64,000 bases of DNA from an uncultured Alphaproteobacteria bacterium. GTDB taxonomy: Bacteria > Pseudomonadota > Alphaproteobacteria > RF32 > CAG-239. The DNA is taken from the NCBI GenBank assembly GCA_944391505.1, contig CALXTV010000001.1, forward strand, positions 34,651 through 98,650, in the 5' to 3' direction. Within the stretch, counting starts at the first letter, position 1; each line of letters begins with the position of its first letter. The notes under the pieces were generated by a model. It was not told the origin of the DNA. It saw only the letters and a list, made by a program, of their open reading frames with translations, and searched no databases. Shown here piece by piece: positions 14,498 to 34,809 of the stretch. Both the position numbers and the translations under genes were made by a program.

Positions 14498-14513
14498 AGT
14501 AACCGAATTTCCG

Positions 14514-14749: not shown

Positions 14750-14808
14750 TGTAGTAAACCTCAACGGTATTAAGCATACTAAATCAAAAACACTCCAATC
14801 CCAAATAA

Positions 14809-14935
14809 CAGGGAATCTACAGGGAATTTTATCTTGTTTCTCTCCCCTCATACCACCATATTTACCTTGAATTGCTTAGCTTACCAAAACATCTCTCCCT
14901 AAATTATCAGGGAATTTAAAATTAAATACAGGGAA
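14809..14935 (+). repeat. Four CAGGGAA motifs at the island left end (possible recombinase accessory sites)
   Basis: CAGGGAA at 14809, 14820, 14908 and 14929; inverted TCCCT at 14896. Confidence 0.5.
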
Positions 14936-15018
14936 AATTTACAATTAGGAATTGCTTTTTGCAAAGTACAATAGTAACAATATATATTATTGATTATTGA
15001 AAGAATTAGGAAACAAAA

Positions 15019-16778: not shown

Positions 16779-16788
16779 AAATATTTCT

Positions 16789-19218: not shown

Positions 19219-19963
19219 TCTCAGCTCCTAAATACTGCATAAACATTTCATAACTATTTTGAGTAACACAAATAACATGAATTTTTTTTCCTTGTAATAT
19301 AGAAATTCTCTTAATTGATTGTACTATTTCATCATGATTCTGTGGCGTCCAAACTCCATTCAAAAATATTGTTGCACTTGGTATAATGTTATTGTCATCA
19401 ATACTTTGATAACGATGATTGATAAAATCATCTGACAAACTTTTTAATCTATCTCTCAACTCTTTTTTAGTTCCTACTGCTCTTGCATGATTATATGCAT
19501 TCAACCAAGGATTATTACTCACTTCTGTAGTTATTTTTGCTTTGACGTCATTATACGCTTCTCTTATCTTAGAGGCATGCGTTATACCAGAAGTAGTTAT
19601 CAATCCAGATTTACTTTCCATAAACCAAAGATCATCTTCTATAGAATACAATCCATCGAATCCCTTTTTCAAAGAATTTTCCTCAAGATTAAAAAATAAA
19701 CACTCTTGTTTATAGCCTTTATATTTTAAATATAAATGTATAAAAAACTCCGCTATAGAGCCTATTATTTTGTTTTGATCTCCCCATCTTTCTATGCGGC
19801 CTTTTAAATCCAATTTTATGGTTGATAGATCTCCGTCTTCTCCAATACATATTTGATGAATATTTTCATCAATAAACTGTTTCAATTCCTCTGTAATAGT
19901 TTCAATATCAATTACACTTATTTCAATTTTATCGTCCACTGTTTGTGTAACATTAAATACCAT
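19211..19963 (-). CDS. PD-(D/E)xK nuclease, Hachiman HamA (DUF1837)-like
   Basis: IAEFFIH...KKGFDG...LWFMESKS; coupled to the helicase. Confidence 0.6.
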   Translation of the reverse strand: MVFNVTQTVDDKIEISVIDIETITEELKQFIDENIHQICIGEDGDLSTIKLDLKGRIERWGDQNKIIGSIAEFFIHLYLKYKGYKQECLFFNLEENSLKKGFDGLYSIEDDLWFMESKSGLITTSGITHASKIREAYNDVKAKITTEVSNNPWLNAYNHARAVGTKKELRDRLKSLSDDFINHRYQSIDDNNIIPSATIFLNGVWTPQNHDEIVQSIKRISILQGKKIHVICVTQNSYEMFMQYLGAENE

Positions 19964-19986
19964 TATTTCAAATTCCTTTAAACAAT

Positions 19987-20172
19987 TTAGTAATATTGCT
20001 CAATGTATTGATATACCTTATCTAAGACGTCTTTATCTTTTATTTTATATTTTATCCAGATGATACTACGTAAGGCTTTTTTGATCTCTTGTTTTCCGGT
20101 TGTTGTATCCTGCCAATCTGGAAAACGCACATATTTCACAATATCATCCATATTATTAATAATCCGTTCCAC
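19987..20172 (-). pseudogene. C-terminal remnant of a type I restriction subunit HsdR
   Basis: VERIINNMDDIVKYVRFPDWQDTTTGKQEIKKALR...YQYIEQYY* resembles the HsdR C-terminus; in-frame stop a few codons upstream. Confidence 0.65.
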
Positions 20173-20255
20173 ATTATCTTCGAAAAAATCTAAACCTCAA
20201 ATATTCTGCCCATTAGTAGGAATCCCTTAATGATGCCCCCATAAGAGAATGAAAC

Positions 20256-21260
20256 TTATTCAATTTCATTCATCTCTTCAAATAGATACGGAGCTACAGA
20301 GATTTCCTTTTGTTTTTCAACTTTTCTTTTAAATGCCTCTATATTTTTACTAATCTCCATAAGAGCTGAAACCCTACCAATCTGTAAAATAAGGATATTT
20401 CTTCCCTCTTCAGTTAACCACCTATGAAACTGAGCAATTCTTTTTCCATCTTTTTTTATATTCTTCTTATTAAGTTCTTCTTTTATATATCCGTGTTCTA
20501 TTGGCTCATACACATATTTATTTATAAAGTTTCCATAATACATCGGCCTTTTACGAGAAATAGTGATTCCGTTATTATAAAGACGATCTAGTTCAGCAAA
20601 AAAAGCATCCGGAAATGTTTTAATCCATTTTTGTAAACCTTCTTCAATATATTTTGCTAACAATATCCTTAATGCATCGTGTTTTCTGTCATATTGGTAA
20701 CCCGTTGCTTCGTCAATTAATGCATCTATACCAACTTGAGCAAAAGCCATTAATAGAATTTCAGATTTCTCTGCAAGTTTCTTTTGTGAAGCTGTTAATT
20801 GGTTGTCTCTACGTGCATTGAGATAAACTTCACACATTTTAGGTAATATACTAGCCAAATAACCTGTTTTTTCTATAGACCCATCAATATATGTGATTGG
20901 GGTGGCTTTCTCAATAACTTCTGAAGTTATATATTTTTCTAAGTTTTTTGCGGCCAAAAATGGAGGTATTTTTGTTCCTTCAATTTCGAGCCTTGAATTC
21001 ATACCTTTTCTAGTTCGATCAAAAGCATTAAATATAGATGTTGCGGTTAAAACTCTCCGACCATCATCTAATACAGCACAATCTATTTCCACATCGCCAA
21101 TAGGAAGCACTCCAGTATATAGAGTCTTAGGAAAATTGCTTTCATTAGTAGCACTTTTTTGCCATCTTGATTGTGCCGCTTTTACTGCTATCTCTCTACG
21201 TTGTTCTGATGATAATTTTTTTGCTCTAACCTTACCACCTTTAATTTGATTTACATTCAT
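20256..21260 (-). CDS. P63C domain protein
   Basis: KGGKVRAKKLSSEQRREIA N-terminus; GIDALIDEATGYQ; WIKTFP; RPMYYGNFINKYVYEP; FHRWLT. Confidence 0.8.
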   Translation of the reverse strand: MNVNQIKGGKVRAKKLSSEQRREIAVKAAQSRWQKSATNESNFPKTLYTGVLPIGDVEIDCAVLDDGRRVLTATSIFNAFDRTRKGMNSRLEIEGTKIPPFLAAKNLEKYITSEVIEKATPITYIDGSIEKTGYLASILPKMCEVYLNARRDNQLTASQKKLAEKSEILLMAFAQVGIDALIDEATGYQYDRKHDALRILLAKYIEEGLQKWIKTFPDAFFAELDRLYNNGITISRKRPMYYGNFINKYVYEPIEHGYIKEELNKKNIKKDGKRIAQFHRWLTEEGRNILILQIGRVSALMEISKNIEAFKRKVEKQKEISVAPYLFEEMNEIE

Positions 21261-21413
21261 ATTTATACCTCTTTTTTATGCTTGCTGATATTTTTTATAT
21301 TGCATGCTTGCTATAGAGTCAAGAATTTTTCTTTTAACTAATTTAATGATTGTGTTTTCAATAATCGCCAGTATAATTTCAATATATTAGTAAAAACAAC
21401 ATAGGAAATAGCT

Positions 21414-22127
21414 ATGACTGAGGCAGAAAAAAGAGAAATACTAGCAAAAGCAAAGGATTTTTTTAGAGAGAAAATTGTTGATAATCATAAAAGGAATACA
21501 GAAAGATTAGGTAAATTATCGGCTTTTCAACCGAATCCTTTTTTAGAAAAATATCTAGCAAACTTTGCTTTTGGTAATTGTAACGCTTCTAGCATAGCAA
21601 AGGCTCTAATATATCCTAGGGTTTTAGGAACATCAATAAATACTACATTCGGTACACAAATGCAGGCTTTTTGCAAAGATGTGCTTAGTGGTTTTGCATC
21701 CACTACTCCTGGTATAGATATTGAATTTATTGACCAAATAGATAATCGCCGCAAATATTGCCAAATAAAAGCTGGGCCTAACACCATTAATAATGATGAT
21801 ATTACAACTATTAAAAATCATTTTGAATCTATTCGTCGTATAGCCCGCACCAATGGTTTACGCGAATTTAATGCTGATATTGATTGTATTGTTGGTGTTT
21901 TTTATGGAAAAAGTGATGATTTATCACAAATGTATCGGACAATTGATCGTTCGCATCCAGTATATGTCGGCAAAGATTTTTGGCACCATTTAACCGGGGA
22001 TCCCAGCTTTTATGATGAATTAATAAATGAAATTGCGTCTATTGCAACAGAGGTCGATGGAACCGAATTATTAAATAATGCAATTAGGCAGCTATCTACA
22101 GAAATAGAAGAAAAATATAATCAATAA
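21414..22127 (+). CDS. Type II restriction endonuclease (PmeII-family-like)
   Basis: LIYPRVLGTSINTTFG, GIDIEFID, YCQIKAGPNTIN; directly upstream of a C5-MTase. Confidence 0.75.
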   Translation: MTEAEKREILAKAKDFFREKIVDNHKRNTERLGKLSAFQPNPFLEKYLANFAFGNCNASSIAKALIYPRVLGTSINTTFGTQMQAFCKDVLSGFASTTPGIDIEFIDQIDNRRKYCQIKAGPNTINNDDITTIKNHFESIRRIARTNGLREFNADIDCIVGVFYGKSDDLSQMYRTIDRSHPVYVGKDFWHHLTGDPSFYDELINEIASIATEVDGTELLNNAIRQLSTEIEEKYNQ

Positions 22128-22219
22128 CGATATTTTAACTTATCTACAGCTATCCTAATAACCCTTGCATATATGCAAGGGTTATTTTATTGTTCCTTTA
22201 TTGAATCAAGGAGTGTCTT

Positions 22220-23464
22220 ATGCAGTTATCTATTCATGAAGTTAGCCAAAAACTTAATCTTTCAATCGATACAATCAGAAGATGGGAGAAAAAAGGCCTG
22301 ATAAAAGCAGAAAGATCGGATAAAAACCATAGAATCTTTGATGAAGATGAAGTAAAAGTACTTCTAAAAAAATTAAACGACAAATCTGAAGCAGAATTTA
22401 AAGTATTAAAAAATGAAATACCCTCATCTTATACAGCAATAGAGTTGTTTGCCGGTGCAGGAGGGACAGCTCTAGGCTTCGAAAATGCTGGAATACACCA
22501 TGTACTTCTAAATGAATTTGATAAAAACTGCGTAGAAACCTTAAGAAATAACTTCCCTAAAGGCACAAATATTGTTCATGCTGATATACATAATGTCGAT
22601 TTTTCATCTTGGAAAGGTAAAGTTGATATCGTGCAAGCTGGTTTCCCTTGCCAAGCCTTTAGTTATGCGGGAAAAAGCATGGGGTTTGAAGACACACGAG
22701 GAACACTATTTTTTGAATTTGCAAGATGTGTTAAAGAAACAATGCCAAAGATTGCTGTTGGAGAAAATGTCAAAGGATTATTAAAACATGATAATGGCAG
22801 AACTCTTCAAACTATGATAAATACGCTAACAGAACTTGGTTATAATGTAAGATATAAGCTGTTAAGAGCGCAATATCTTGATGTTCCACAAAAAAGAGAA
22901 CGTTTAATTATAATAGGAATTAGAAAAGATTTAGATTTACCTTTCATTTTCCCTAAAGAAAAAAATTATACAGTCTCTTTAAGAGCTGCATTGAAAAATT
23001 GCCCAAAATCAGAAGGGCAAAGCTATCCAAAAAGAAAAGCTGAGATTCTTTCTCAGGTTCCAGAAGGTGGATATTGGAGAGATCTTCCAATAGAGTTACA
23101 AAAAGAATATATGAAAGGAAGTTTTTACCTTTCTGGAGGAAAAACTGGTATGGCAAGACGCCTTTCTTGGGATGAGCCAAGCCTAACCTTGACCTGTGCT
23201 CCTGCACAAAAACAAACAGAAAGATGTCATCCTGAAGAAACTCGACCATTAACTATTAGGGAATACGCCAGAATCCAGACATTCCCGGACACTTGGGAAT
23301 TTAAGGGATCTATGGGAGCTCAATACAAACAAATAGGGAATGCTGTACCAGTAAATTTAAGTTATCACATTGGCCGCTGTTTGATTGCTATGCTTGATAA
23401 AAACTATGATATTGAAGATGCTGTTATTGAAGATAATACAAGCCATTTATCTAAAGCTGCATAA
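22220..23464 (+). CDS. DNA (cytosine-5)-methyltransferase with N-terminal MerR-type HTH
   Basis: ELFAGAGG, GFPCQAFS, ENVKGL, PQKRER, RIQTFPD, KQIGNAVP; N-terminal SIDTIRRWEKKGLI. Confidence 0.95.
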   Translation: MQLSIHEVSQKLNLSIDTIRRWEKKGLIKAERSDKNHRIFDEDEVKVLLKKLNDKSEAEFKVLKNEIPSSYTAIELFAGAGGTALGFENAGIHHVLLNEFDKNCVETLRNNFPKGTNIVHADIHNVDFSSWKGKVDIVQAGFPCQAFSYAGKSMGFEDTRGTLFFEFARCVKETMPKIAVGENVKGLLKHDNGRTLQTMINTLTELGYNVRYKLLRAQYLDVPQKRERLIIIGIRKDLDLPFIFPKEKNYTVSLRAALKNCPKSEGQSYPKRKAEILSQVPEGGYWRDLPIELQKEYMKGSFYLSGGKTGMARRLSWDEPSLTLTCAPAQKQTERCHPEETRPLTIREYARIQTFPDTWEFKGSMGAQYKQIGNAVPVNLSYHIGRCLIAMLDKNYDIEDAVIEDNTSHLSKAA

Positions 23465-23589
23465 CTTTAAATATACAGATGCTTATGTGCAAAGAGATAA
23501 TTATCTACAAGTTAAAAAATATATTAATAAAGTAAGAAATATAGATCTTAATGCTTAAGCATCCAGAAAATAATAGAAAAATACTTGAG

Positions 23590-23910
23590 TTATTTCAAAA
23601 CTTCAATAAATTTGGATAAGGTATGAATTTGTTCATCCGAAAGGTGCCTAATATTTGCAATCAACAAGGACTCTTCAGCTGCACGTTTGGGGCTAATGTT
23701 GTCATCAACATTATCATCTAAAATCATGCTTAATCGGCAATTAAGAGCTTTTGTTATATCGACCAAGGTCTCAAAATGTGGATAATTGACACCTCTTTCT
23801 ATGTTTGATATAGCCTCAACAGAAACATCACATCGCTCAGCTAAAACTTCTTGTGTCATTTTAGCCGCTTGTCTAATAGCCTTAATTCTTAACCCGATCT
23901 TTTTCTTCAT
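23590..23910 (-). CDS. XRE/Cro-C1 HTH regulator
   Basis: IGLRIKAIRQAAKMTQEVLAERCDVSVEAISNIERG. Confidence 0.9.
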   Translation of the reverse strand: MKKKIGLRIKAIRQAAKMTQEVLAERCDVSVEAISNIERGVNYPHFETLVDITKALNCRLSMILDDNVDDNISPKRAAEESLLIANIRHLSDEQIHTLSKFIEVLK

Positions 23911-23960
23911 GTTTTACCCCATAATTAGAAGTTTAGCTTAAAGTTTTTGCTTGAAAGCGG

Positions 23961-24000
23961 AGTAAAACTTGTATAATTTTTATGTAATAGAAGTTTTACT
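23961..24000. promoter_or_regulatory. Putative operator flanking the -10 box of the operon promoter
   Basis: Perfect inverted repeat AGTAAAACTT (23961-23970) / AAGTTTTACT (23991-24000) around TATAAT (23972-23977). Confidence 0.6.
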
Positions 24001-24030
24001 TAATAAAATAAAAATCTATAGGCTAACATA

Positions 24031-24927
24031 ATGAAAAATCGAGCAATATCTGAAAAATTTTTTTATGAGTTTAAAAGCGGAAAGTATCAAAACATCCTAC
24101 AAACTGTAAAGCAAGACGATGATTTAATTATGTGCCTGCGAGGTGATTATATTACCATATATTATAAGAGTATGCGTATATTGGAAATATCCGAAAATGG
24201 CGAATATGATGTTGATAAAAACTACGGCATTATTCCTCCAAACGATAATACAAATTGGATAGAATATTTCAAAAATGCAAAATTTGCCTTGAGTTCCTAC
24301 AATAAAACTAAACAAATTAATAAACTTGAAAAGGAAGTTCAACAAGCGATTGTTAAAGAAAACAACACAAGCTCTATCTGCAATGAAACCGATTACTTTA
24401 TTATTGATATAGAATATACTCAGTCGGAATTTGATGGTAGATTTGATGCATTAGCTGTCTATTGGCCTAAAAACAAACGCAAAAACGGCCATGACCTACA
24501 ACTAGCGTTCATTGAAGTTAAAGCCGGCAATAATGCTATTGGAGGGACTTCCGGTATTGTAAAGCATTATGAATCGGTTATTGAATTTTTGAATAATCTT
24601 ACCAAGAATAATGAAAAAGAACAATTTATCCAAGATATTGAAAAAGTGATAGCTCAACAGCGAGACTTGGGATTATGGAATATTCCTCATAATAAACACG
24701 AAATAACTTTGTCTCGCTCAACCAAGCCTCAATTAATTTTTATTCTTGCCAACTATAATCAAAACTCAACAGTATTACGCAATGAATTAAATCTTTTTCC
24801 CAGTATTAACAAGAAATATAGTAATGAGCTTCCTTTTGAATTGAAATTTGCTACGTCATCTTTTGTCGGATATGGCTTATATAGTAACGGAATGATTACT
24901 ATAGATAATATATTAGATAAAAAATAA
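24031..24927 (+). CDS. Hypothetical protein with a PD-(D/E)xK-like nuclease motif
   Basis: EKEVQQ...IIDIEY...GRFDALAV...LAFIEVKAG. Confidence 0.6.
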   Translation: MKNRAISEKFFYEFKSGKYQNILQTVKQDDDLIMCLRGDYITIYYKSMRILEISENGEYDVDKNYGIIPPNDNTNWIEYFKNAKFALSSYNKTKQINKLEKEVQQAIVKENNTSSICNETDYFIIDIEYTQSEFDGRFDALAVYWPKNKRKNGHDLQLAFIEVKAGNNAIGGTSGIVKHYESVIEFLNNLTKNNEKEQFIQDIEKVIAQQRDLGLWNIPHNKHEITLSRSTKPQLIFILANYNQNSTVLRNELNLFPSINKKYSNELPFELKFATSSFVGYGLYSNGMITIDNILDKK

Positions 24928-24936
24928 GGAACTAAA

Positions 24937-26133
24937 ATGAAGGCATGTATTAGAAGAGGAGCAAACCAAATCGGAGGATCTGCTGTTGAAATTATAGCAG
25001 ATAATCAACAAAGGTTGATTATAGATATTGGGTTACCTCTTGATGCAGAGGAAAATACTCAAGACCTTCTTCCTCAAATTGACGGTCTTAAACATAAGAC
25101 ACCTGATTTGCTAGGTATCTTAATATCTCATCCCCATCAAGATCATTATGCCTTAGGATTACATATTGATAAAGACATCCCTGTTTTTATGAGCCATGCG
25201 ACATCAAAAATAATGGAAGTTGCCACACAGCATAATATTCCTGACGCATTTGTCTTTAGCAATATCAATATCTTTGAAAATCAAAAAAGTTTTAAAATCG
25301 GGAGCTTCAACATTACACCCTATTTGGTTGATCATTCGGCCTATGAGGCTTATGCTTTTTTAATTGAAGCTGACGGCAAACGTTTGTTTTACAGCGGAGA
25401 TTTTCGTGCACATGGTCGAAAATCCAAATTATTTGAATCATTCATTAAAAATCCTCCGCAACATATAGATACATTATTAATGGAAGGCTCTTGTTTAGGA
25501 CGAGATAAATCCGAGCAATACGAAAGTGAAACCGAGTTGGAAGAAAAGTTTTTTGATATATTTAAACAAACAAGGGGGATAAGCCTTATTCAAACATCTT
25601 CGCAAAACATTGATAGAATTGTTACCATCTACCGAGCATGCAAAAAAAGTAACCGCACATTGGTAATGTCTGGGTATACAGGACATATTCTGCAATGTTT
25701 AGAAAATTCACATTTACCAAATTTTACATGGCCGGATGTTAAAAAAATGAGCCAATCAGTTACAAGAAAACATGAAATATCTGTTGAAATGATAGAAAAG
25801 TCTCCCGATAAATACACAATCCTTTTGGGCGGCCAGATATTTAATATGCTAAAAAACAGTTTCCTTTTAAATAATGAAGCTTCATTTATTTATTCCATGT
25901 GGGATGGTTATAAAGAACTATATAAAGAGCGACTGGAACTAATTCAAAATAAAGGGGTTAATATGTTTGATATTCACACCTCAGGACATGCAGATATTCC
26001 AAGTCTTCAAAAATTTGCATCAGCTCTTAATCCTCATCAATTGGTTCCGATTCATACTTTTCTCCCACAAGAGTTCAAAAAGCTATTCAATAATGTAGTT
26101 ATTTATGAAGATAATCAAATATTTACAATATAA
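24937..26133 (+). CDS. MBL-fold metallo-hydrolase, beta-CASP / RNase J-like
   Basis: SHPHQDHY, VDHSAY, YSGDFRAHG, HTSGHA and PIHT motifs. Confidence 0.9.
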   Translation: MKACIRRGANQIGGSAVEIIADNQQRLIIDIGLPLDAEENTQDLLPQIDGLKHKTPDLLGILISHPHQDHYALGLHIDKDIPVFMSHATSKIMEVATQHNIPDAFVFSNINIFENQKSFKIGSFNITPYLVDHSAYEAYAFLIEADGKRLFYSGDFRAHGRKSKLFESFIKNPPQHIDTLLMEGSCLGRDKSEQYESETELEEKFFDIFKQTRGISLIQTSSQNIDRIVTIYRACKKSNRTLVMSGYTGHILQCLENSHLPNFTWPDVKKMSQSVTRKHEISVEMIEKSPDKYTILLGGQIFNMLKNSFLLNNEASFIYSMWDGYKELYKERLELIQNKGVNMFDIHTSGHADIPSLQKFASALNPHQLVPIHTFLPQEFKKLFNNVVIYEDNQIFTI

Positions 26134-26144
26134 GGACAAAGTAA

Positions 26145-26843
26145 ATGGATTTAAAAAACAACTTAGAACTTATAATCGGTGGTATTGCATCTACTGTCGC
26201 CATGGCCGCAATTATTTTTAGATTTGTCTTTTTTGAAATAGATTTAAGCACAACAGCTGATTTTATAAAAGACTTTTCAGAAATTATTGTATCGGTTTTA
26301 GTCTTTTTTGTTGCCGTTAAAAGTATCTTAAGCCAGAGTAAAAAAAAGGAAACTTTCAAAAAAGTTTTTGATGAAGAGCTTCAAGCATGGATGCAACGCA
26401 ATCGCCCACTGATTTCTAAAGAGAACCGTTTTCAGGTTGAAAATGCTGACAGATATTTTATTTTGTCGGATCATGATCACATTTTTGATATTGGAGAAGA
26501 TTTTCAAGACGACAAAAAGTATCAAAAAGGTGTGTTTGTTCAACTTCCCCACACATTTACAACTAATGATAAAATTATTTTCTTTATGAACAAAAGTACA
26601 TTTATGGCACGAGCCAAGGCTAAAGACAGTAATGTAGAGGCAGAAATAGATAAACTCATATATCGAACAGCAAATTGTATTAGTGCCAAATTTGGTAAAG
26701 AATTATTTGAGGCAAGTGGAGATCCCAAACATCATCAAATCCATGTTAAAATAAAGACCCGAGATCTTGATACACCTGAAGATGCTCGAACAATAATAAA
26801 AATGCTTGATTATGTAATGATTTTATACTTAGCAGCAGCTTAA
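26145..26843 (+). CDS. Hypothetical protein with two N-terminal TM helices
   Basis: Hydrophobic segments LIIGGIASTVAMAAIIFRFVFF and IIVSVLVFFVAV followed by a soluble domain. Confidence 0.7.
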   Translation: MDLKNNLELIIGGIASTVAMAAIIFRFVFFEIDLSTTADFIKDFSEIIVSVLVFFVAVKSILSQSKKKETFKKVFDEELQAWMQRNRPLISKENRFQVENADRYFILSDHDHIFDIGEDFQDDKKYQKGVFVQLPHTFTTNDKIIFFMNKSTFMARAKAKDSNVEAEIDKLIYRTANCISAKFGKELFEASGDPKHHQIHVKIKTRDLDTPEDARTIIKMLDYVMILYLAAA

Positions 26844-26872
26844 ACTTCAACTCAAACCGAAAGGAAAAAGAC

Positions 26873-27175
26873 ATGAGAAATTTTAAAATAGAAAGAACCG
26901 GAGTCGTTCGAGATGAAAGAGGAATGAAAGTTGGTACGGTTCAAAGAAATACCCTAAGAGATGCTAGAGGATCCCGCCTCGCAGAAATATCTGGAGATAG
27001 AATCAAGGATAGTCGAGGTTTAACTTTAGGAGAAATTAGCGGCTCAAGAATAAAAACGAGACGAGGAAATACAGTTATGGAAATTGATAAAATTCCTCTT
27101 GATTACGAAATGCCAGTTTCTCCGGCAATGGCCGCAGCAATCATGCATTTTTTTATCAAACCGATTTTTGATTAA
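26873..27175 (+). CDS. Small beta-repeat protein (beta-flower-like)
   Basis: About four ~15-aa repeats: VRDERGMKVGTVQ / LRDARGSRLAEIS / IKDSRGLTLGEIS / IKTRRGNTVMEID; SD GAAAGG. Confidence 0.6.
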   Translation: MRNFKIERTGVVRDERGMKVGTVQRNTLRDARGSRLAEISGDRIKDSRGLTLGEISGSRIKTRRGNTVMEIDKIPLDYEMPVSPAMAAAIMHFFIKPIFD

Positions 27176-27197
27176 AATTTCAGCTTAGTTATAATTG

Positions 27198-27227
27198 AAA
27201 ATGCCGAGTACTTACTCGGCATTTTTT
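27198..27227 (+). terminator. Intrinsic terminator ending the four-gene operon
   Basis: AAAATGCCGAGTA / TACTCGGCATTTT hairpin with T-run. Confidence 0.8.
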
Positions 27228-27341
27228 GTTATACAATGGAAAACAACGTATATAATATACATAAATACACTTAAATAAAAGTATTGACATTTATAATATA
27301 CTTTGATATACATAAGCACATAAGAAGGTAAGGAGGGCTCT

Positions 27342-27707
27342 ATGGCATTTGAAAAATTTATTATCCAAACCAAAAAAAACTTCCCAACTGCATCAATTTC
27401 AACGCTCGGAAGACTTAGCCTGAATGAGGCTGCAATCTCTGCTTTTGGCTTACAAACAAAAAACTTTGCAGAACTTTTTTACGATTCGGAAAAGGCGCTT
27501 ATTGGCATAAAATTTTTGAATTCAGAGACAGAAAACAGTCTAAAAGTCCAAAGACGTGACAACTCCGGTATGTTTTTATCGGTTAAAAGCTTCTTCAAAG
27601 CCTATCAGATTGACTACTCAACTACATATTTTTGTGAAGTATCACAAGATGAAAAGGATAAAGACTTTTTGATAATAAACTTAAACACCAAGACAGAAAG
27701 GAGATAG
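27342..27707 (+). CDS. Hypothetical protein
   Basis: 121-aa ORF with SD AGGAGG and upstream TTGACA-17-TATACA. Confidence 0.7.
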   Translation: MAFEKFIIQTKKNFPTASISTLGRLSLNEAAISAFGLQTKNFAELFYDSEKALIGIKFLNSETENSLKVQRRDNSGMFLSVKSFFKAYQIDYSTTYFCEVSQDEKDKDFLIINLNTKTERR

Positions 27708-27901
27708 ACCAATGAACTGTTGACAATAAAAAAAAGAGGTTAAGAAACCGCTATTTCCCAACCTCAGAAGAAATGTTAAAAATTAACATCTCCAATCAAG
27801 AGTTATCTTAACATTTCTCCGAATAAAATCAATCTTTTTTTACTTATACCATTTGCGGTTTAGGTACAAATTCATTTTTTCAATAAGAAAGGAGAAAGTT
27901 A

Positions 27902-29224
27902 ATGGACAATTCATTAATTATTGAAAATATAAACCTTACTTCGTTAAAAACATATCATAACAATGCCAAAGTACATAATGAAGAGCAGCTTCAAGCCTTA
28001 GCTTCGTCAATTAAACAATTTGGCTTTAATTCCCCCATTTTGATTGATGAGAAAAACGAAATCATTGCCGGGCATGGCCGATTAGAAGCTGCCAAAATTG
28101 TCGGATTGACAGAAGTTCCTGCCATCAGGCTAACTCATTTGTCTGAAGTTCAAAAACGTGCATACCGTCTTGCTGATAACAAAATTGCTGAAAAAGGCGG
28201 ATGGAATGAAGACATTCTCAAACTTGAACTTTCTGAGTTAGAAAGCATGTGTAATGATTTTGACATAACGATCACCGGTTTTAGTTCTGTCGAGTTAGAT
28301 GTGTTGCTTGATGATACCGGCAATTCACATAAAATTGATAAGCAGCTTAACACTGATCCTTTTGTTCCTGAAAATGAAATAATTACGCAGCCAGGAGATA
28401 TTTGGCACCTTGGCAATCATCGGATTATCTGCGGCAATTCTCAAGATGAAGAAACCTTCTCAAAATTGATGCAAACTCAAAAAGCAAAGATGGTTTTGCA
28501 AGATCCTCCTTTTAATGTTGCCATTAACGGACATGTTTGCGGAAGCGGCAAAACCAAGCATAAAGAATTTGCTTTTGCCTCTGGTGAAATGACTGATGAT
28601 CAATTTATCAAATTTTTAGAAACAAACTTCAGACTTTGCGCCTCTTTTTCACAAGAAGGCTCTCTTCACTATAACTTTATGGACTGGCGACATATTCTTC
28701 ATATATCGGTTGCAGGAAAAAATGTTTTTGACTCATTGATTAACCTTTGTGTGTGGAACAAAGGAACTGGCGGCATGGGAAGTCTATTCCGTTCAGGATA
28801 TGAACTGTGTTTTATTTTCAAAAAAGGAAATAAAAGTCACACTAATAATGTTGAGCTTGGCAAAAATGGTCGCTACCGAACAAATGTTTGGAATTATCCC
28901 GGAGTAAATAGTTTTGGTCGTCATCGACAAGACTTAAAAATGCATCCGACAGTAAAACCCGTAGAAATGCTTTATGATGCTATTTTAGATGTAACCAAGC
29001 GTGGTGATTTAGTTTTAGATTCGTTTTTAGGTTCTGGCTCAAGTTTAATTGCTGCCGAGAAAGCACACAGGATCTGCTATGGCATTGAATGCGAGATGCT
29101 TTATATCGATACCACAATCAGACGTTTTCAAAATATCTTCAAGATTGATGCTGTCCGTGAAAAAGACGGTAAGACATACAATCAATTATTGGAAGAACTA
29201 AAATCAGGAGACACTCATGACTAA
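27902..29224 (+). CDS. ParB/Srx N-terminal domain fused to an N4/N6 DNA methyltransferase
   Basis: SIKQFGFNSPILIDE..IIAGHGRLEAA; QDPPFN; HPTVKP; VLDSFLGSGS. Confidence 0.92.
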   Translation: MDNSLIIENINLTSLKTYHNNAKVHNEEQLQALASSIKQFGFNSPILIDEKNEIIAGHGRLEAAKIVGLTEVPAIRLTHLSEVQKRAYRLADNKIAEKGGWNEDILKLELSELESMCNDFDITITGFSSVELDVLLDDTGNSHKIDKQLNTDPFVPENEIITQPGDIWHLGNHRIICGNSQDEETFSKLMQTQKAKMVLQDPPFNVAINGHVCGSGKTKHKEFAFASGEMTDDQFIKFLETNFRLCASFSQEGSLHYNFMDWRHILHISVAGKNVFDSLINLCVWNKGTGGMGSLFRSGYELCFIFKKGNKSHTNNVELGKNGRYRTNVWNYPGVNSFGRHRQDLKMHPTVKPVEMLYDAILDVTKRGDLVLDSFLGSGSSLIAAEKAHRICYGIECEMLYIDTTIRRFQNIFKIDAVREKDGKTYNQLLEELKSGDTHD

Positions 29225-29603
29225 TAAGACTTATGATGTTGGCTATTGCAATCCACCACAACATTCCCGCTTTCAGAAAGGGAAAAGCGGCAATCCTTCG
29301 GGGCGCCCTAAGTACAGCCGAAATACGTATAAGCTATTGGAAGATATTTTGGAGCAGAAGGTTTCAATCGTCCAAGATGGTAAGCAAATCAAAATTTCAA
29401 AAAAGGTAGCGATTCTTTTGCAGGCAGTCAATTCTGCGGTTAAAGGCGATACAAAAGCCATCCGCGATTTATTTCCTCATTTGTTGGCTGTCGATGCCAG
29501 ACAAGAAGAGAAAGAACAAAAAAGAGCTTCACTTAAAGCTGATGATTTAAGCATAATTAATAATTTTTTGCAAAATAAGGAGACCGAAAATGGTGAACTT
29601 TAA
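29217..29603 (+). CDS. DUF5681 protein (possible small-terminase analogue)
   Basis: YDVGYCNPPQHSRFQKGKSGNPSGRPK. Confidence 0.75.
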   Translation: MTNKTYDVGYCNPPQHSRFQKGKSGNPSGRPKYSRNTYKLLEDILEQKVSIVQDGKQIKISKKVAILLQAVNSAVKGDTKAIRDLFPHLLAVDARQEEKEQKRASLKADDLSIINNFLQNKETENGEL

Positions 29604-30087
29604 TCTAAACAAAACAAAATCAATACTTTTTTTAGAACAAATAAGTCACAATGCTTCTTCTCCGAAGCAACTACTGCAAAATCTTGCAAAAGATTTCCGG
29701 TCGTTGAGTTCAGAAGAACAAAAAGATTTTCAGCAATTATTGCTTGATATGCTTGATAAAACTTGCAGTTTGAAAAAGATAAAAATTGCTCAGGATGCCG
29801 AAAGTAAAGTAAAAAGACCTGAATTTCCTAAAGACATTTTTGAAAAATTGCTTTGGGAATTACAAGACAAACCATCTGAATATATTGAACCTCGGCTGGA
29901 GATGATGCGAGCTTGTCTTTCTTTTCCATCGGGCAAACAATCTAAAACAGCATCAAGCGCCATTCAAGAAATGAAGTTGAGCTTATCTCACAAAGGTTTT
30001 TCATTAGCTAAAAAACGCAACGTCTTCTTAAGATGTTTGTACGAAACATTTTTACTTCAGGAGCTGTACAATGATATCGATGAATAA
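29590..30087 (+). CDS. Hypothetical protein
   Basis: 165-aa ORF overlapping both neighbours. Confidence 0.6.
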   Translation: MVNFNLNKTKSILFLEQISHNASSPKQLLQNLAKDFRSLSSEEQKDFQQLLLDMLDKTCSLKKIKIAQDAESKVKRPEFPKDIFEKLLWELQDKPSEYIEPRLEMMRACLSFPSGKQSKTASSAIQEMKLSLSHKGFSLAKKRNVFLRCLYETFLLQELYNDIDE

Positions 30088-31597
30088 CCAAGACTTGCTT
30101 AAGGCCATTTTACGTTCAGATCTAAAATCATTTGTCACAAAAGTGTTTTTTGATGTATCACCCTCGGCTCAATATCTTGATAATTGGCATATTGATCTTA
30201 TTTGCCAAGAATTAGCACAAATGATAAATGGTCAAGAAACGCGTTTAATAATTAACATTCCACCACGATATTTAAAATCCATAATCTGTTCGGTTGCGCT
30301 TCCGGCTTTTATTTTAGGACATAATCCGCAAAGCTCTATTATCTGCGTAAGTTATTCGGATGATTTGGCGGCAAAACATGCTAATGATTGTCGCAGAATA
30401 ATTACCTCACAATGGTATCAAGAGCTATTTCCCGAAACAGTGTTAAGCAGCAATAAAAAATCAACATCAGATTTTGAAACTACTAAAGGAGGTGGAAGAT
30501 TTTCTACCTCCATAAACGGCACATTAACCGGACGAGGAGCTGATTGGATTATAATTGACGACCCCATAAAACCGACAGATGCAATGTCAGATAATATCAG
30601 AGATAAAGTTAACGACTGGTACCGATCAACACTATATTCCCGTCTCAACAATAAAGTTGAAGGAAAAATCATTCTGATTATGCAGCGCTTACATGAAAAT
30701 GACATGACCGGATTTTTGCTTGAAAGCGATAAAAAGTTTAAACTCATCAAACTCCCCGTCATTGCGGAAGAAGACGAAACATGGATTTTAAAAAATCAAT
30801 TTACACAAACAACGCTTACAATCGAGCGACATCCTGGAGATCTTTTGCATCCACAGAGAGAAAACCTTGAAACGATTAAAGAATTGCAAGATTCTTTAGG
30901 CGAATTTGCCTTTGCAGGGCAATACCAACAAAATCCCGTTCCCCAAAGTGGTGGAATGGTAAAAAAGGACTGGATGTACTTTTATAATGAGCTGCCAGCA
31001 TTAAAGCAAATCATTTTGTCTTGGGATACGGCAAGTAAAGATGGCTTTGACAATGCATATTCTGCATACGTCTTACTTGGTGTTGATTACAACCGCAAAT
31101 ATTATTTGATAGAAGCTAATCGCTATCGGCTCAATTTTCCAGAACTAGTAAAAACAGTAGATAGAATGAATGATCAATGTATTGATTTATTTAAGCAAAA
31201 GCCGGATATCCTTATTGAAGATGCCACATCCGGGACACAACTTATCCAAGTTTTAAGAGGAGAATATGGTCTATCTCCACATGCAATCAGAGCCGAGCAA
31301 GACAAAATTTCACGTATGCAAGCGGTATCTCTAGCAATAGAGCAACAAAGACTGTTATTTCCTAATCAAGCCGGAATATGGTATCAAACTTTTGAAAAAG
31401 AGCTTTTAACATTTCCAAAATCAAGATTTAAGGATCAATGTGATGCCTTGAGTCAAGCAGTGTGCTTTTTATCTTCAGAGATACAAAATCCGCAAATCAA
31501 ACCATATATAGCCACCGGCAATCATTTTTACACTAGTGGACATCGATCAACCTATAAAGTACATCCTATGCGAGATCCAAGGAAACTAAGACATTAA
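30071..31597 (+). CDS. terL: Phage terminase large subunit
   Basis: IINIPPRYLKS, GRGADWIIIDDP, FAGQYQQNP, SWDTA, KDQCDALSQ. Confidence 0.9.
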   Translation: MISMNNQDLLKAILRSDLKSFVTKVFFDVSPSAQYLDNWHIDLICQELAQMINGQETRLIINIPPRYLKSIICSVALPAFILGHNPQSSIICVSYSDDLAAKHANDCRRIITSQWYQELFPETVLSSNKKSTSDFETTKGGGRFSTSINGTLTGRGADWIIIDDPIKPTDAMSDNIRDKVNDWYRSTLYSRLNNKVEGKIILIMQRLHENDMTGFLLESDKKFKLIKLPVIAEEDETWILKNQFTQTTLTIERHPGDLLHPQRENLETIKELQDSLGEFAFAGQYQQNPVPQSGGMVKKDWMYFYNELPALKQIILSWDTASKDGFDNAYSAYVLLGVDYNRKYYLIEANRYRLNFPELVKTVDRMNDQCIDLFKQKPDILIEDATSGTQLIQVLRGEYGLSPHAIRAEQDKISRMQAVSLAIEQQRLLFPNQAGIWYQTFEKELLTFPKSRFKDQCDALSQAVCFLSSEIQNPQIKPYIATGNHFYTSGHRSTYKVHPMRDPRKLRH

Positions 31598-31653
31598 TAA
31601 AACTTGACTTAAGACAATGAAAGAGCCTTCATGCAACAATATGGAGGCTCTTA

Positions 31654-31911
31654 ATGTATAAAAAACCGCCTATAGCACACCAATTTCAAAAAGGAAAATC
31701 TGGAAATCCGAATGGTCGACCCAAAATCTCCGATTCGGCACTATTTGATTTGACTTCCTTGTTTTTGCAAGCGTTACTGTTAGCAAGGAACAAAGATAAA
31801 AGTTCCCGAGACAAATTAAGCAAAATAAGGGAGATTTTGTATGAAAAGGAAAATTCATCTACCCAAAAACATCGAAGAGCTAAAAAAATTATCACAAAAA
31901 AAGCAGGCTGA
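31654..31911 (+). CDS. Second, short DUF5681-motif protein
   Basis: KPPIAHQFQKGKSGNPNGRPK; SD GGAGG. Confidence 0.6.
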   Translation: MYKKPPIAHQFQKGKSGNPNGRPKISDSALFDLTSLFLQALLLARNKDKSSRDKLSKIREILYEKENSSTQKHRRAKKIITKKAG

Positions 31912-32293
31912 GCTTTGGGAGCGTTATGTAAACAGCCCTTACAATCACCAGCTTAGAGCATTGTGGTATTATATTGCTTGCGAAAATGCCAATCTTAAGA
32001 TTGAACGCAAACACCTAATTAAGTTAGAAAAATATGCTGAAAACCCTGATGAATGTATGATTAAGGTATACAAAACCAAATATAACCTTCATCCGGGAAC
32101 AGAAATTACTAAAACCTTCCGCAACCATCAATACAAAGTTATTATAAATGAAGCAAATGATTTTATTTTTGAGGGCAAACATTATAAAACTCTATCGGCG
32201 GTTGCCAAAGAAATATGTGGAATAAAAGTATCAGGCTATGACTTCTTTGGCTTAAACAACAAACGAGCATTAAAGGAGGCAACACATGACTAG
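31841..32293 (+). CDS. DUF2924 protein
   Basis: PGTEITKTFR...FIFEGKHYKTLSAVAKEICGIKVSGYDFFGL; directly upstream of the recombinase. Confidence 0.8.
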   Translation: MKRKIHLPKNIEELKKLSQKKQAELWERYVNSPYNHQLRALWYYIACENANLKIERKHLIKLEKYAENPDECMIKVYKTKYNLHPGTEITKTFRNHQYKVIINEANDFIFEGKHYKTLSAVAKEICGIKVSGYDFFGLNNKRALKEATHD

Positions 32294-33917
32294 AATAAAT
32301 TGTGCCGTCTATGTTCGTAAATCTACCGAAAAAGGATTGGAGCTTGAGTTTAATTCATTGCATAATCAAGAAGAAGCATGCCGAAGCTATATATTATCAC
32401 AAGCCTTTAACAACTGGGAATATTTCAAAACTTATACCGACGGCGGCATTTCCGGTGGCACTATGGAACGTCCGGCCTTAAAACAAATGCTTGAAGATAT
32501 TCGACATGGATTAATACAGACAGTGGTGGTTTATAAAGTCGACCGTTTATCCCGCTCAATTATGGACTTCCATAATATGATGAAAGAATTTGATAAATAT
32601 GGTTGCAGCTTTGTTTCAATTACTCAAGCCTTTGACACGTCGACTTCCATGGGCAAGCTAACGCTAAACATGCTGCTATCATTTGCTCAATTTGAGCGAG
32701 AGGTGTCTTCGGAACGTGTCCGTGATAAAATCCGTGCCAGTAAAGCCAAAGGCCTATGGACTGGAGGAATACCTAAACTAGGTTATGATATTATAGATAA
32801 AAAACTGGTCATTAATCCCGTCGAAGCCGAACAGGTGCATAGCATTTTTGAAGACTATCTGCAATGTAGCTCGCTGGCGGAGCTTGAGAAATTTGCTGAA
32901 ATAAAAGGTTTCAAACATAAAAGCTGGATAACCAACAAGGGGGAACAGAGAGGCGGAAAACCTTTTAAAATATCCGCGCTCCACCGCTTGCTGCATGAAA
33001 AATTATACCTCGGCATGATTGAGAACAAACGCACCGGACAAGCATTTAAAGGACAGCATGAAGCTATCATATCAAAAGATCTGTGGGAAAAGGTACAAAA
33101 CAAGCTCAAAGAAAATGACAACAGCTCTAATCATACAAGGAACAGAAACAATAATCTGCTGACTGGAAAACTGTTTGATGCTAACGGCACAATTTTTACC
33201 AATCAGGCCAACAGTAAAAAGAAAGCTACCAAACGACATTACTATTCTATTAAGGGTTTGTTCCTACCCACGGAGCAAATTGATAAGCTCGCTAAAGATG
33301 CCATTATTGAGATTCTTAACGGCAATCTCAATGGCTTAAACAAAGACAGCGCAATGGCTTTAAAACTGATAAACTTCAACGATATGGACTATTTCGCGCA
33401 ACGCAATTTTATCCGCAACTTCATCAATAAAATCATCTATCAAAAAGATCTCTTAACCTTCTTCTTTAATACCGATCCGATAATCCTCTCGGCCTATACC
33501 GGCGATTCGCTGAATGAAAGCAACAACCCGCTGGAAGTTATTGCTGATAATACCAACAACCAAATCATCTATGAAAAACAGGTCATCATCAACCGAGGGC
33601 TGTCAAGCAATGTCTACAACGCCGGAAAGGTCGGACTGATGAGCATCAATGACAACAACCGCCTGATCGTCAGAGCCTTTGCCTATGCATGGAAATTTAA
33701 GAAACTATATGAAAAAGGCATCCGGATGGAAGACATCATGAAACAGGAGAAAATGACCAAGCGTACAATTTACAAATATCTCAACCTTGCTTATCTCTCG
33801 CCAAGAATAGTCAATCAACTTCTCTCCGGAACACTAACCATCAATCTGCAAACTCTTTTCGATATCGCCTCTAAAAACCTAAGCTTTGAAGAACAGGAAA
33901 AAGAAATATTTCAGTGA
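32286..33917 (+). CDS. Large serine recombinase (resolvase + recombinase domains)
   Basis: CAVYVRKST, DGGISGGTMERPAL, VYKVDRLSRS, FAQFEREVSSER. Confidence 0.95.
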   Translation: MTRINCAVYVRKSTEKGLELEFNSLHNQEEACRSYILSQAFNNWEYFKTYTDGGISGGTMERPALKQMLEDIRHGLIQTVVVYKVDRLSRSIMDFHNMMKEFDKYGCSFVSITQAFDTSTSMGKLTLNMLLSFAQFEREVSSERVRDKIRASKAKGLWTGGIPKLGYDIIDKKLVINPVEAEQVHSIFEDYLQCSSLAELEKFAEIKGFKHKSWITNKGEQRGGKPFKISALHRLLHEKLYLGMIENKRTGQAFKGQHEAIISKDLWEKVQNKLKENDNSSNHTRNRNNNLLTGKLFDANGTIFTNQANSKKKATKRHYYSIKGLFLPTEQIDKLAKDAIIEILNGNLNGLNKDSAMALKLINFNDMDYFAQRNFIRNFINKIIYQKDLLTFFFNTDPIILSAYTGDSLNESNNPLEVIADNTNNQIIYEKQVIINRGLSSNVYNAGKVGLMSINDNNRLIVRAFAYAWKFKKLYEKGIRMEDIMKQEKMTKRTIYKYLNLAYLSPRIVNQLLSGTLTINLQTLFDIASKNLSFEEQEKEIFQ

Positions 33918-34354
33918 TTAAGTTTATACAAAACTATCTTATTTATAATATAAAAAATTTCCCAAGATAAATCATTATAAAGCATCAAAAGTGTGTCATT
34001 TTCGTAGAATGGATAAAAAATACCTTCTTTTTCAAATCCCAAAGAAAATACATCAGCATGCATCAATAAGTTTCTTATTTTTCTTACACTCAAATTTTCA
34101 TTATTAAGAAAATCAAATTCCTTTCCATCTATAATATTTTGGGTAAACAATGTTTGTAGAACATTGTAAAACTTCATATCATAATTCTCAATAACTGATT
34201 TCGATACATTTTCAAATACATTAAATAAAACATTTAAGCAAGCTATTCCTTGACCTTCTTTATACAGAATTTCACACGTTTGTAAAGATTGAGCGTAATA
34301 GTGAGAATATTGCCAAACATTATCTATTATAGCATTTTTATCTACTCCTTGCAT
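33911..34354 (-). CDS. Hypothetical protein with a HEPN-like RxxxxH motif
   Basis: RKIRNLLMH; N-terminal helix with NVFENVSK. Confidence 0.55.
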   Translation of the reverse strand: MQGVDKNAIIDNVWQYSHYYAQSLQTCEILYKEGQGIACLNVLFNVFENVSKSVIENYDMKFYNVLQTLFTQNIIDGKEFDFLNNENLSVRKIRNLLMHADVFSLGFEKEGIFYPFYENDTLLMLYNDLSWEIFYIINKIVLYKLNH

Positions 34355-34487
34355 ATTTTCCTCTCAAGTGACTCTCCCAAAATCGGCAATGTATGTAACT
34401 GCCGGAAATTTTGCACTTTCCAACATAAAACGAGCTTACCATAGTCATTTCGGCAAAGTCAACCGCCGACAAAGCCAGCGTTTCCGC

Positions 34488-34723
34488 CGGATACGAAAAA
34501 AGACGCTGTTATCCAGCGTCTTTTTAATCAAAATGGCGGAGAGATAGGGATTACTCTGCGCTAAAGCTTGAGTTGCACAGGCACTCATCGGCTTTCCAAG
34601 CCGACCGGCGTACTCCCGTCCGCCTTTCGCTGGTAGTCGAACCCTATCTCTAGGGTTCAAATCCAACCTTCCTCATCATTTACAACAAAACCCGCACAAG
34701 GCGGGCTTTGTTGTAAATGGCGG
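34488..34723. repeat. Right 236-bp direct repeat, overlapping the tRNA-Ser 3' end
   Basis: Copy of 14514-14749. Confidence 0.97.
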
Positions 34724-34809
34724 AGAGATAGGGATTCGAACCCTAGGTACCCCGATAGGAGTACAATTGATTTCGAGTCAACCGCATTCGACCACTCTGC
34801 CATCTCTCC
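34718..34809 (-). tRNA. tRNA-Ser(CGA)
   Basis: GGAGAGATGGCAGAGTGGTCGAATGCGGTTGACT-CGA-AATCAATTG...GGGTTCGAATCCCTATCTCTCCGCCA; long variable arm, encoded CCA. Confidence 0.97.

Follow-up and report, generated by a model that had tools for sequence, protein, structure and literature searches.

A tRNA-Ser island with its own terminase, a serine recombinase and defence cargo, and its possible role as a phage satellite

What use does a genomic island have for a complete-looking phage terminase when it carries no capsid genes? The question is raised by a 64,000-nt stretch of DNA (the window; GenBank assembly GCA_944391505.1, contig CALXTV010000001.1, forward-strand positions 34,651 to 98,650) from an uncultured gut alphaproteobacterium, whose genome measures 1.74 Mb and is 99.6 % complete. 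Within the window, a 19,974-bp island bounded by 236-nt direct repeats beside tRNA-Ser(CGA) is an intact mobile element, of which a seven-gene operon (27902-33917) forms the right end and defence cargo the remainder. The operon combines a packaging module, consisting of a ParB-methyltransferase fusion (ParB-MTase; M in gene layouts), a DUF5681 protein (S) and the large terminase subunit (TerL; L), with an integration module made up of a DUF2924 protein (D) and a large serine recombinase (R). These two phage-derived modules characterize a large and apparently undescribed family of islands. In the reading that we consider best, and to which we give intermediate confidence, the island would package itself into the capsids of an infecting phage using its own terminase.

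Anatomy of the island and its terminase

The sequencing runs containing the window sequence are chicken-gut metagenomes, and its nearest named records are alphaproteobacterial metagenome-assembled genomes. GC content is 32.5 % between the repeats vs 47-48 % in the host DNA on either side, and the island repeats to which a preliminary description of the locus referred are real, agreeing at 235 of 236 nt with an offset of 19,974 nt. The features that delimit the island and make up its two modules are as follows.

14514-14749, unstranded: left direct repeat (attL side), comprising, in order, the X hairpin, 22 nt copied from the 3' end of tRNA-Ser, the Y unit and AAATGGCGG
27902-29224, + strand: ParB_N and N6_N4_Mtase fusion (Pfam; phrog_498, 1e-117)
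29217-29603, + strand: DUF5681 protein, 128 aa, in the small-terminase position (Pfam, 1e-20)
29590-30087, + strand: orf165, 165 aa, an optional gene between DUF5681 and TerL, no family
30071-31597, + strand: TerL, 508 aa (Terminase_6C/6N; phrog_38, 1e-98)
31654-31911, + strand: short DUF5681 paralogue, 85 aa, with its own GGAGG site (Pfam, 2e-9)
31841-32293, + strand: DUF2924 protein (Pfam, 7e-19)
32286-33917, + strand: large serine recombinase, 543 aa (PF00239 Resolvase, 2e-40; PF07508 Recombinase, 4e-14)
34355-34530, unstranded: right arm, segments Z and X, with a terminator hairpin (from conservation in related elements)
34488-34723, unstranded: right direct repeat (attR side), terminating in AAATGGCGG, the last 9 nt of the tRNA gene (CCGCCATTT)
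34718-34809, - strand: tRNA-Ser(CGA), the integration target, with its 3' end towards the island (ARAGORN and Rfam)

The preliminary description had given the span of these genes and the families of all but orf165, had called them a tightly coupled operon, and had placed an intact-looking TerL between two DUF5681 proteins sharing the motif F(Q)KGKSGNPxGRPK; ORF calls and Pfam and PHROGs scans agree with it on all of these points. Successive genes overlap by 8, 14 and 17 nt, are then separated by a 56-nt gap and overlap again by 71 and 8 nt, a GGAG-type ribosome-binding site precedes every start codon, and both DUF5681 proteins carry FQKGKSGNP(S/N)GRPK. The reported absence of portal, capsid, tail, lysis and replication genes between the repeats likewise held in Pfam, PHROGs and PADLOC, where none of the ORFs of ≥ 100 aa in that interval matched a head, tail, lysis or replication family.

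The operon opens with a gene for a beta-class methyltransferase that has the ParB motif AGHGRLEAA and, at residue 201, a motif IV reading DPPF, which points to a probable N6-adenine enzyme. In PADLOC, this protein matches generic methyltransferase models only, and no other backbone protein has a match. For DUF5681, which lies directly upstream of TerL in 65 of 84 related loci, gene position suggests a small-terminase role. In its AlphaFold2 model (pLDDT 83), an extended basic arm at the N-terminus (GNPSGRPK) is combined with a small helix-hairpin-helix domain and one helix of 48 residues, a predicted fold compatible with a DNA-binding, oligomerizing small terminase; within the BFVD database it matches only other DUF5681 proteins. 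The short paralogue retains only the N-terminal basic motif, its gene shares the 71-nt overlap with DUF2924, and it is 80-84 % conserved at the nucleotide level in three related loci (L036, L038 and L005). Without a match in Pfam, PHROGs or PADLOC, orf165 belongs to an ORF cluster from four loci, and genes of 113-168 aa fill its slot in approximately eleven loci. The recombinase has the catalytic motif YVRKS(13)T and the architecture of a large serine recombinase, with no zinc-ribbon family detected in it. DUF2924, always directly upstream of the recombinase in the loci that have it, is by this arrangement a predicted obligate partner of that enzyme.

TerL contains a Walker A region reading INIPPRYLKS, the Walker B motif IIIDD (163-164) and the nuclease acidic residues D319, E383 and D455/D458, which align with their phage counterparts (Terminase_6C, 8e-6 in Pfam); R66, K69, S70, D163, D164, D319, E383, D455 and D458 do not vary across 36 aligned TerLs. 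Judged by these motifs, it is a predicted ATPase and RNase H-like nuclease of the Terminase_6/T7-like lineage, and the nearest solved structure is T7 gp19 (E-value 1e-4). Ratios of nonsynonymous to synonymous substitution (dN/dS), computed against three near-identical copies in other species, are 0.03-0.06 for TerL, 0.06-0.14 for DUF2924, 0.07-0.10 for the recombinase and ∼0.2 for ParB-MTase; the ratio is 0.2-0.3 for orf165 and, in L036, L038 and L005, 0.26-0.36 for the short DUF5681 gene. Apparent internal stops in this comparison were considered as signs of pseudogenes and rejected, as small indels had broken colinear extension and the ORFs are intact in clustering. TerL, which is present as a single copy in the host genome, is under strong purifying selection and looks functional; the inactive protein under relaxed selection that the preliminary description had allowed for finds no counterpart in these ratios and invariant motifs.

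A FastTree phylogeny of 171 TerL sequences placed the window protein in a clade of 95 tips, all of island context, with support of 1.0 and a stem of 0.60 substitutions per site, and island TerLs share a clade-specific insertion in the ATPase domain. The sister group consists of 14 phage-context TerLs. A further 61 more distant island TerLs from IMG/VR branch outside both groups with the root on Leptospira phage LE3, and their position depends on the root; therefore the tree that the preliminary description had called for sets the window TerL within an island-only clade and does not resolve a single clade for all island TerLs.

Counterparts of both modules exist in phages. In a set of 50,697 phage records, the closest TerL of a genuine phage is ∼33 % identical; phages of this kind have the portal gene directly 3' of terL and a small terminase of Terminase_2 or Sf6 type. 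The nearest phage-context TerL overall, 44 % identical over the ATPase domain, comes from an IMG/VR phage that encodes a portal of 706 aa and a major head protein and has short-tail-like genes. DUF5681 of the island type is nearly absent from phage records (≤ 35 % identity in deposited phages); in Leptospira phage LE3, a DUF5681 gene overlaps the start of terL and is followed by the portal gene, so that it occupies the small-terminase slot. A ParB-MTase fusion is found in 348 phage records, and its gene often immediately precedes those for packaging. At the other end, Acidithiobacillus phage AcaML1 has a DUF2924 gene abutting a serine recombinase near the genome end and a ParB-MTase upstream of the terminase, and Wolbachia phage WO has a similar layout (PMC10299305). 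As such, the island looks like two phage ends retained together with everything between them replaced, and the ends of temperate phages of the AcaML1 and WO type are the likely evolutionary source of both modules.

A family of small islands and its movement between species

Relatives of TerL number in the thousands. A scan of one genome per species returned 341 loci, of which the best 79, together with five others, had their ORFs clustered (84 loci); IMG/VR yielded 207 further loci, the best 80 of which were examined, giving 164 loci in all. Across the 84 clustered loci, TerL recurs in 84, ParB-MTase in 77, DUF5681 in 65, DUF2924 in 62 and the recombinase in 61, with some of the shortfall explained by loci on truncated contigs. 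Beyond these five backbone genes, an XRE regulator is found in 23 of 84 and every other cluster in no more than 12. The 80 IMG/VR loci are contigs of 4-16 kb with the same five genes, none of them with terminal repeats. The preliminary description had also raised the prospect of homologues that regularly include structural genes; none was found in any of the 84 + 80 loci.

The M, S and L genes always form one operon, in which ParB-MTase directly precedes DUF5681 and TerL, and D and R are always paired, whilst the two modules may be adjacent, divergent or separated by cargo. Pairwise identities across 41 complete loci are strongly correlated for D and R (rho 0.86) and for M and S (0.73), less so for L and M (0.49) and weakly for L and R (0.19). 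The packaging and integration modules thus reassort and yet nearly always co-occur, pointing to a functional link rather than to mere shared descent. In 35 of the 42 loci with enough flanking sequence, a tRNA gene lies within 3 kb of the recombinase gene, the two with their 3' ends towards each other; 28 of these 35 have tRNA-Ser in that position.

Every neighbourhood inspected (TerL identity 50-68 %; Alphaproteobacteria, a complete Vampirovibrio genome and others) proved to be a small island with M, S, L, D and R. Cargo in these neighbourhoods is unrelated and defence-like, including SIR2, PLD, reverse transcriptase, HNH, SNF2 with a methylase, restriction-modification and WYL genes, and six neighbourhoods with precomputed Pfam labels held defence-like cargo only. 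Similar gene strings had been anticipated for Alphaproteobacteria, where they are indeed present; that range was too narrow, however, as the family's hosts also include Melainabacteria, Elusimicrobia, Vulcanimicrobiota and Gracilibacteria and span at least five phyla. Full-text literature searches found no description of DUF2924/DUF5681 elements or of satellites combining a large terminase with a serine recombinase.

Comparison of close relatives indicates that the island has recently been transferred between species. Its backbone is 93.6-95.5 % identical at the nucleotide level in three other species, with the groEL region at 77 %; in these copies the recombinase gene is ∼82 % identical and TerL 97-99 %. 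Backbones that are 94-99 % identical (L032-L035 and L207) carry cargo quite different from that at 14750-27800 of the window, from which it follows that cargo turns over much faster than the backbone diverges. One such copy bears an SNF2 helicase, DUF4391, an SLFN/Fic-like gene and a methylase set, and another a 1085-aa helicase.

Distribution amongst closer relatives is patchy: TerL is present in 8 of 61, and of six congeners (G001-G006) only G002 carries the element. In G002 (contig C24; L206, 16085-17506) an in-frame TAG lies in the N-terminal part of TerL, which could be decay or recoding. A remnant beside tRNA-Ser in G006 comprises only the arm, a homologue of the variable gene orf147 and a 102-aa recombinase tail, and the tRNA-Ser site is unoccupied in G004 and G005.

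Attachment region and cargo

The right arm (Z + X) is 79-88 % conserved beside the recombinase in L002, L010-L012, L032-L038, G002 and G006, and is absent from the unoccupied tRNA-Ser sites of G004 and G005. Because it always lies next to the recombinase and is missing where the site is unoccupied, it is the element's own arm, whose terminator hairpin would serve the tRNA gene once the element is integrated. The Y unit (34553-34714) and the flanking copy of the tRNA 3' end, in turn, are present at unoccupied sites and represent host sequence. On the left, the island interior starts at 14750 with TGTAGTAAACC, where the left repeat copy ends, and the left interior end (14660-14830) is kept in L005 and L002.

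Serine recombinases do not generate long repeats. The 236-nt repeat was accordingly rejected as a product of serine recombination, its X-Z part belonging to the element arm and its Y part to the host, and more probably stems from tandem elements or from several insertions where the tRNA end had been duplicated. Within the Y unit, a core of ∼117 nt (34548-34664 and 14574-14690), enclosed by the two parts of a split tRNA-Ser 3' end copy, is a dispersed repeat, with copies of 73-79 % identity at several unrelated places in each of G001-G006, and two Y units lie in tandem adjoining tRNA-Ser in G004. It has no Rfam match at the gathering score and looks like a small structured insertion element.

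A type II-C CRISPR-Cas locus (cas9 at 11334-14330) begins right behind an element-type copy of the right arm at 14508-14578, which consists of the tRNA-end core and X, and in L011 (17305-17483) also of Z. The locus thereby occupies the side of the right arm on which the recombinase end lies in a live element. Its GC content is 36 % vs 48 % in the host, and in L012, from a related strain, the island is present and the CRISPR-Cas locus absent. It may be a remnant, or cargo, of an older sibling element that stood in tandem at the same tRNA gene.

The remaining genes of the island, which we regard as its cargo and accessory functions, are listed here.

15019-15621 and 15888-16778, + strand: HEC-05/GmrSD-like gene in two ORFs (PADLOC PDLC04151; phrog_17051)
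16789-19218, - strand: Hachiman-like HamB helicase (PADLOC HamB, 1.6e-45; Pfam DEAD/ResIII/Helicase_C)
19211-19963, - strand: 250-aa partner of HamB, upstream of the HamB gene, no family match
20256-21260, - strand: P63C-domain protein of unknown function (PF10546, 5e-18; phrog_2384, unknown function, 4e-105)
21414-22127, + strand: EcoO109I-type type II endonuclease (PF14511, 5e-35)
22220-23464, + strand: C5 cytosine methylase with a MerR helix-turn-helix (PF00145, 3e-86; PADLOC MTase_II, 4e-115)
23590-23910, - strand: XRE repressor
24031-27175, + strand: four-gene nuclease cassette, XRE-controlled, including a beta-CASP metallo-hydrolase
27342-27707: orf121, directly upstream of the packaging operon
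33911-34354, - strand: orf147, variable, lying between recombinase gene and att arm, no family

The two HEC-05 ORFs match positions 20-201 and 301-593 of the 600 in PDLC04151 and positions 1-179 and 286-580 of the 584 in phrog_17051. As the second reading frame stays open upstream to ∼15570, the split represents a frameshift, either that of a pseudogene or an assembly error. The HamB-type defence helicase is the sole helicase between the repeats, and the position of its 250-aa partner suggests the role of HamA. The same type II restriction-modification pair occurs in L002 on a different backbone variant. In the related loci, the beta-CASP gene is found in 10 of 84 and orf121 in eight of 84. 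No Pfam, PHROGs or PADLOC match was obtained for orf147, which contains RNLLMH, an Rx4H motif resembling those of HEPN nucleases; homologues fill the same slot in L002, L033, G002 and G006, and other genes do so in L032 and L035. In the 194-nt spacer 5' of ParB-MTase, an 11-nt inverted repeat (AGAAATGTTAA ... TTAACATTTCT, with ∼30 nt between; 27760-27830) may serve the packaging operon as an operator or protein-binding site.

Possible uses of the terminase and comparison with known satellites

The integration module inserts the island at the 3' end of the tRNA gene, with the junction at CCGCCA-TTT, and the element arm supplies the tRNA with a new terminator. For self-packaging, the steps that involve a helper phage we infer. 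On infection of the cell, the M-S-L operon would be expressed and the methylase would mark island DNA. In phage P1, Dam methylation licenses the pac cut; methylation of the island could do the same here, and could also protect its DNA in the next host. DUF5681 might bind the pac site through its basic GNPxGRPK arm and oligomerize through its long helix, after which TerL would cut and pump island DNA into the procapsids of the infecting phage. Such capture would both lower phage yield and spread the island, which in a new cell would be inserted at the tRNA site by the serine recombinase.

Infecting phages are the more plausible source of capsids in this scheme. The host genome contains no PF04860 portal and no PF05065 capsid gene, and none of PF05065, PF06381 and PF04860 is present in 31 of 34 carrier genomes, the other three having at least one of them; several carrier genomes are only 0.8-0.9 Mb in size. 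With carriers mostly devoid of head and portal genes, a resident helper or partner akin to a gene transfer agent (GTA) is unlikely, so capsids, if used, would have to come from infecting phages, as they do for the phage-inducible chromosomal island-like element (PLE) with ICP1. A possible trace of particles is MT839917, deposited in GenBank as 'Bacteriophage sp.': this 5.4-kb scaffold, obtained from human faeces sampled in Mexico, has the layout R-D-M-S-L. It probably derives from the chloroform- and DNase-treated particle preparation of PMC8361208, a plausible link by country, source and scaffold naming that is a hint only, the paper being without accession numbers.

Several observations weigh against self-packaging. 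No helper phage was found, the nearest phage TerLs being 33-44 % identical. Logan contigs from four chicken-gut metagenomes contained no circular or empty-site junction, a matter that contigs cannot settle, and the depth of the island in them equals that of its flanks; a lone joint appearing to go back was rejected, since it reflects sequence of the right repeat placed on its left counterpart. No virome run containing the island emerged from a run search filtered by words. Chicken-gut metatranscriptomes yielded contigs of 97-99 % identity to parts of the cargo, to M, to orf165/TerL and to D/R, a weak hint in favour of activity; as assembled contigs they may contain DNA, and they represent a variant without host-flank coverage. 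Neither the DUF5681 model (best E-value 0.66 against solved small terminases and other PDB structures) nor the DUF2924 model (pLDDT 77) has a significant PDB match. Headful or cos packaging normally needs concatemers, yet no replication gene is found among the clusters shared by the 84 loci, which makes concatemer formation by a 12-20 kb element hard to explain, and no capsid-size remodelling gene is found in the family. Finally, the P-loop of TerL, PPRYLKS, is deviant, with Leu or Met in place of the Gly found in most terminases. The deviation was considered as evidence of an inactive enzyme and rejected: in the same frame, the cultured Klebsiella phage Geezett and Iodobacter phage PLPE have PPRYSKT (PHS21 has PPRSGKT), so glycine is dispensable in this TerL lineage.

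Nevertheless, self-packaging into infecting phages remains our preferred reading, and a broader proposal can be built upon it, which we put forward tentatively and regard as somewhat more doubtful than secure. Under this proposal, the five-gene backbone would constitute an old, widespread and undescribed class of satellite that has its own complete terminase and no capsid or replication genes, takes only empty procapsids from infecting, mostly non-resident phages, possibly packages from the integrated copy, and acts as the principal vehicle by which defence systems move among gut bacteria with small genomes, from five or more phyla. The preliminary description had suggested a satellite-like element that redirects or jams helper packaging in order to move its defence cargo, or a terminase repurposed for another form of DNA transfer. 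A real mobile element, distinct from a decayed prophage and moving defence cargo, is what we find; both suggested uses of the terminase stay conjectural.

The jamming of packaging, taken as the sole function of the M-S-L trio, is an unlikely rival. The trio would then be a defence module that competes for procapsids or cuts concatemers, and the island itself would travel by another route, for instance transformation, vesicles or generalized transduction, before integration by the recombinase. An island otherwise full of defence genes, in a family without a replication module or capsid-size genes, suits this idea, as do the weak correlation of TerL and recombinase identities and hosts without resident phages, in which the trio could act on invaders only. 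The trio is never free-standing cargo, however, being nearly always accompanied by the recombinase pair in loci found through TerL, and S, L, D and R are all absent from PADLOC. Jamming would also have no need for an intact nuclease and translocase maintained at dN/dS of 0.03-0.06, although this is a weaker argument, and in known satellites interference and self-packaging can coexist.

A still less probable explanation dispenses with capsids altogether, such that TerL would make site-specific cuts in the element, whether excised or still chromosomal, to produce a linear substrate for transfer or recombination, or would resolve replication products. It gains from the failure to find a helper phage, capsid or portal partner, from the long stem that separates the island clade from phage TerLs and from the clade-specific insertion in the ATPase domain. 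A pure nuclease needs no motor, though, and the motifs of the translocating ATPase are conserved together with those of the nuclease; moreover, we know of no precedent for a TerL acting outside a capsid.

That the island is a decayed prophage, reduced to the two ends of a temperate phage by loss of the middle, is largely refuted and in our view highly improbable: real temperate phages (AcaML1 and WO) do have both modules, and decay does occur (the recombinase tail of G006 and the TAG of the G002 TerL), but structural genes are found in none of the 164 related loci, the same five genes persist in five phyla or more, dN/dS is 0.03-0.14 across TerL, DUF2924 and the recombinase, and copies that are 94-95 % identical reside in different species with different cargo. 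GTAs are common in Alphaproteobacteria, to which many of the family's hosts belong, but a division of labour in which the island terminase serves head and tail genes elsewhere in the same genome is equally improbable, given a host genome without an HK97-type portal or capsid gene, the rarity of such genes amongst the carriers, their small genomes included, and an element that has its own recombinase and moves between species.

Should self-packaging be true, the island would represent a satellite design missing from current schemes, one that neither borrows the TerL of a helper nor builds capsids. It would also explain how defence systems move amongst uncultured gut lineages with tiny genomes and almost no prophages, such as Alphaproteobacteria (Enterousia and Scatocola), Gastranaerophilales, Vampirovibrionales and Elusimicrobia, conjugation genes being absent from these islands. 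The five genes form a clean marker set for finding defence islands in metagenomes, and the family offers tRNA-targeting large serine recombinases with a dedicated partner as well as candidate functions for two domains of unknown function, DUF5681 and DUF2924. Furthermore, virus-mining pipelines list these islands as 'viral contigs' of 4-16 kb, and their recognition would clean virome catalogues.

In general plan, the island resembles the Staphylococcus aureus pathogenicity islands and other phage-inducible chromosomal islands (SaPI/PICI), the phage-inducible chromosomal minimalist islands (PICMI), the virion-encapsidated integrative mobile elements (VEIMEs) and the PICI-like tycheposons in being a fixed-site island of 12-20 kb with phage-derived packaging genes and anti-phage cargo. 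It shares with PICI-type satellites the lack of structural and lysis genes and a presumed dependence on helper capsids, together with an integrase at one end, here that next to the tRNA gene, and a fixed att site. Of packaging functions, known satellites of this group encode no more than a small terminase or a redirecting protein, Rpp/Ppi-like in PICIs, and rely on the TerL of the helper; in marine VEIMEs and tycheposons the set does not go beyond a small terminase or capsid gene, and the integrases are mostly of the tyrosine type (PMC9618062; tycheposon preprint). Unlike PICI-type elements, the present family has a TerS-like and TerL pair and a ParB-methylase, with TerL in all 84 loci; a large serine recombinase and DUF2924 replace the usual tyrosine integrase; and the island is without a primase/rep module and without recognizable Stl/AlpA-type control.

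Other systems approach it in single respects. The capsid-forming PICIs (cf-PICIs) have their own TerS and TerL, and hence a packaging specificity entirely of their own; the island matches them in TerL, with DUF5681 as a putative TerS by gene position. They also encode their own capsid, portal and head-tail connectors and take only tails from the helper, whereas head genes were found in none of 164 island loci. PLE of Vibrio cholerae has a large serine recombinase, is of similar size (∼18 kb), exploits a lytic, non-resident helper and protects the host population; unlike the island, it has its own replication initiator and no known terminase genes, manipulating the ICP1 packaging motor instead (bioRxiv 10.1101/2024.04.22.590561). 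The island has neither the head-tail cluster nor the lack of integrase-driven self-transfer that characterizes GTAs of the Rhodobacter capsulatus (RcGTA) type. With AcaML1 and WO, finally, it shares a DUF2924 gene directly upstream of the serine recombinase beside attP and a ParB-methyltransferase gene upstream of terS and terL, an arrangement that in those phages, of 50-65 kb, comes with portal, head, tail, lysis and replication genes.

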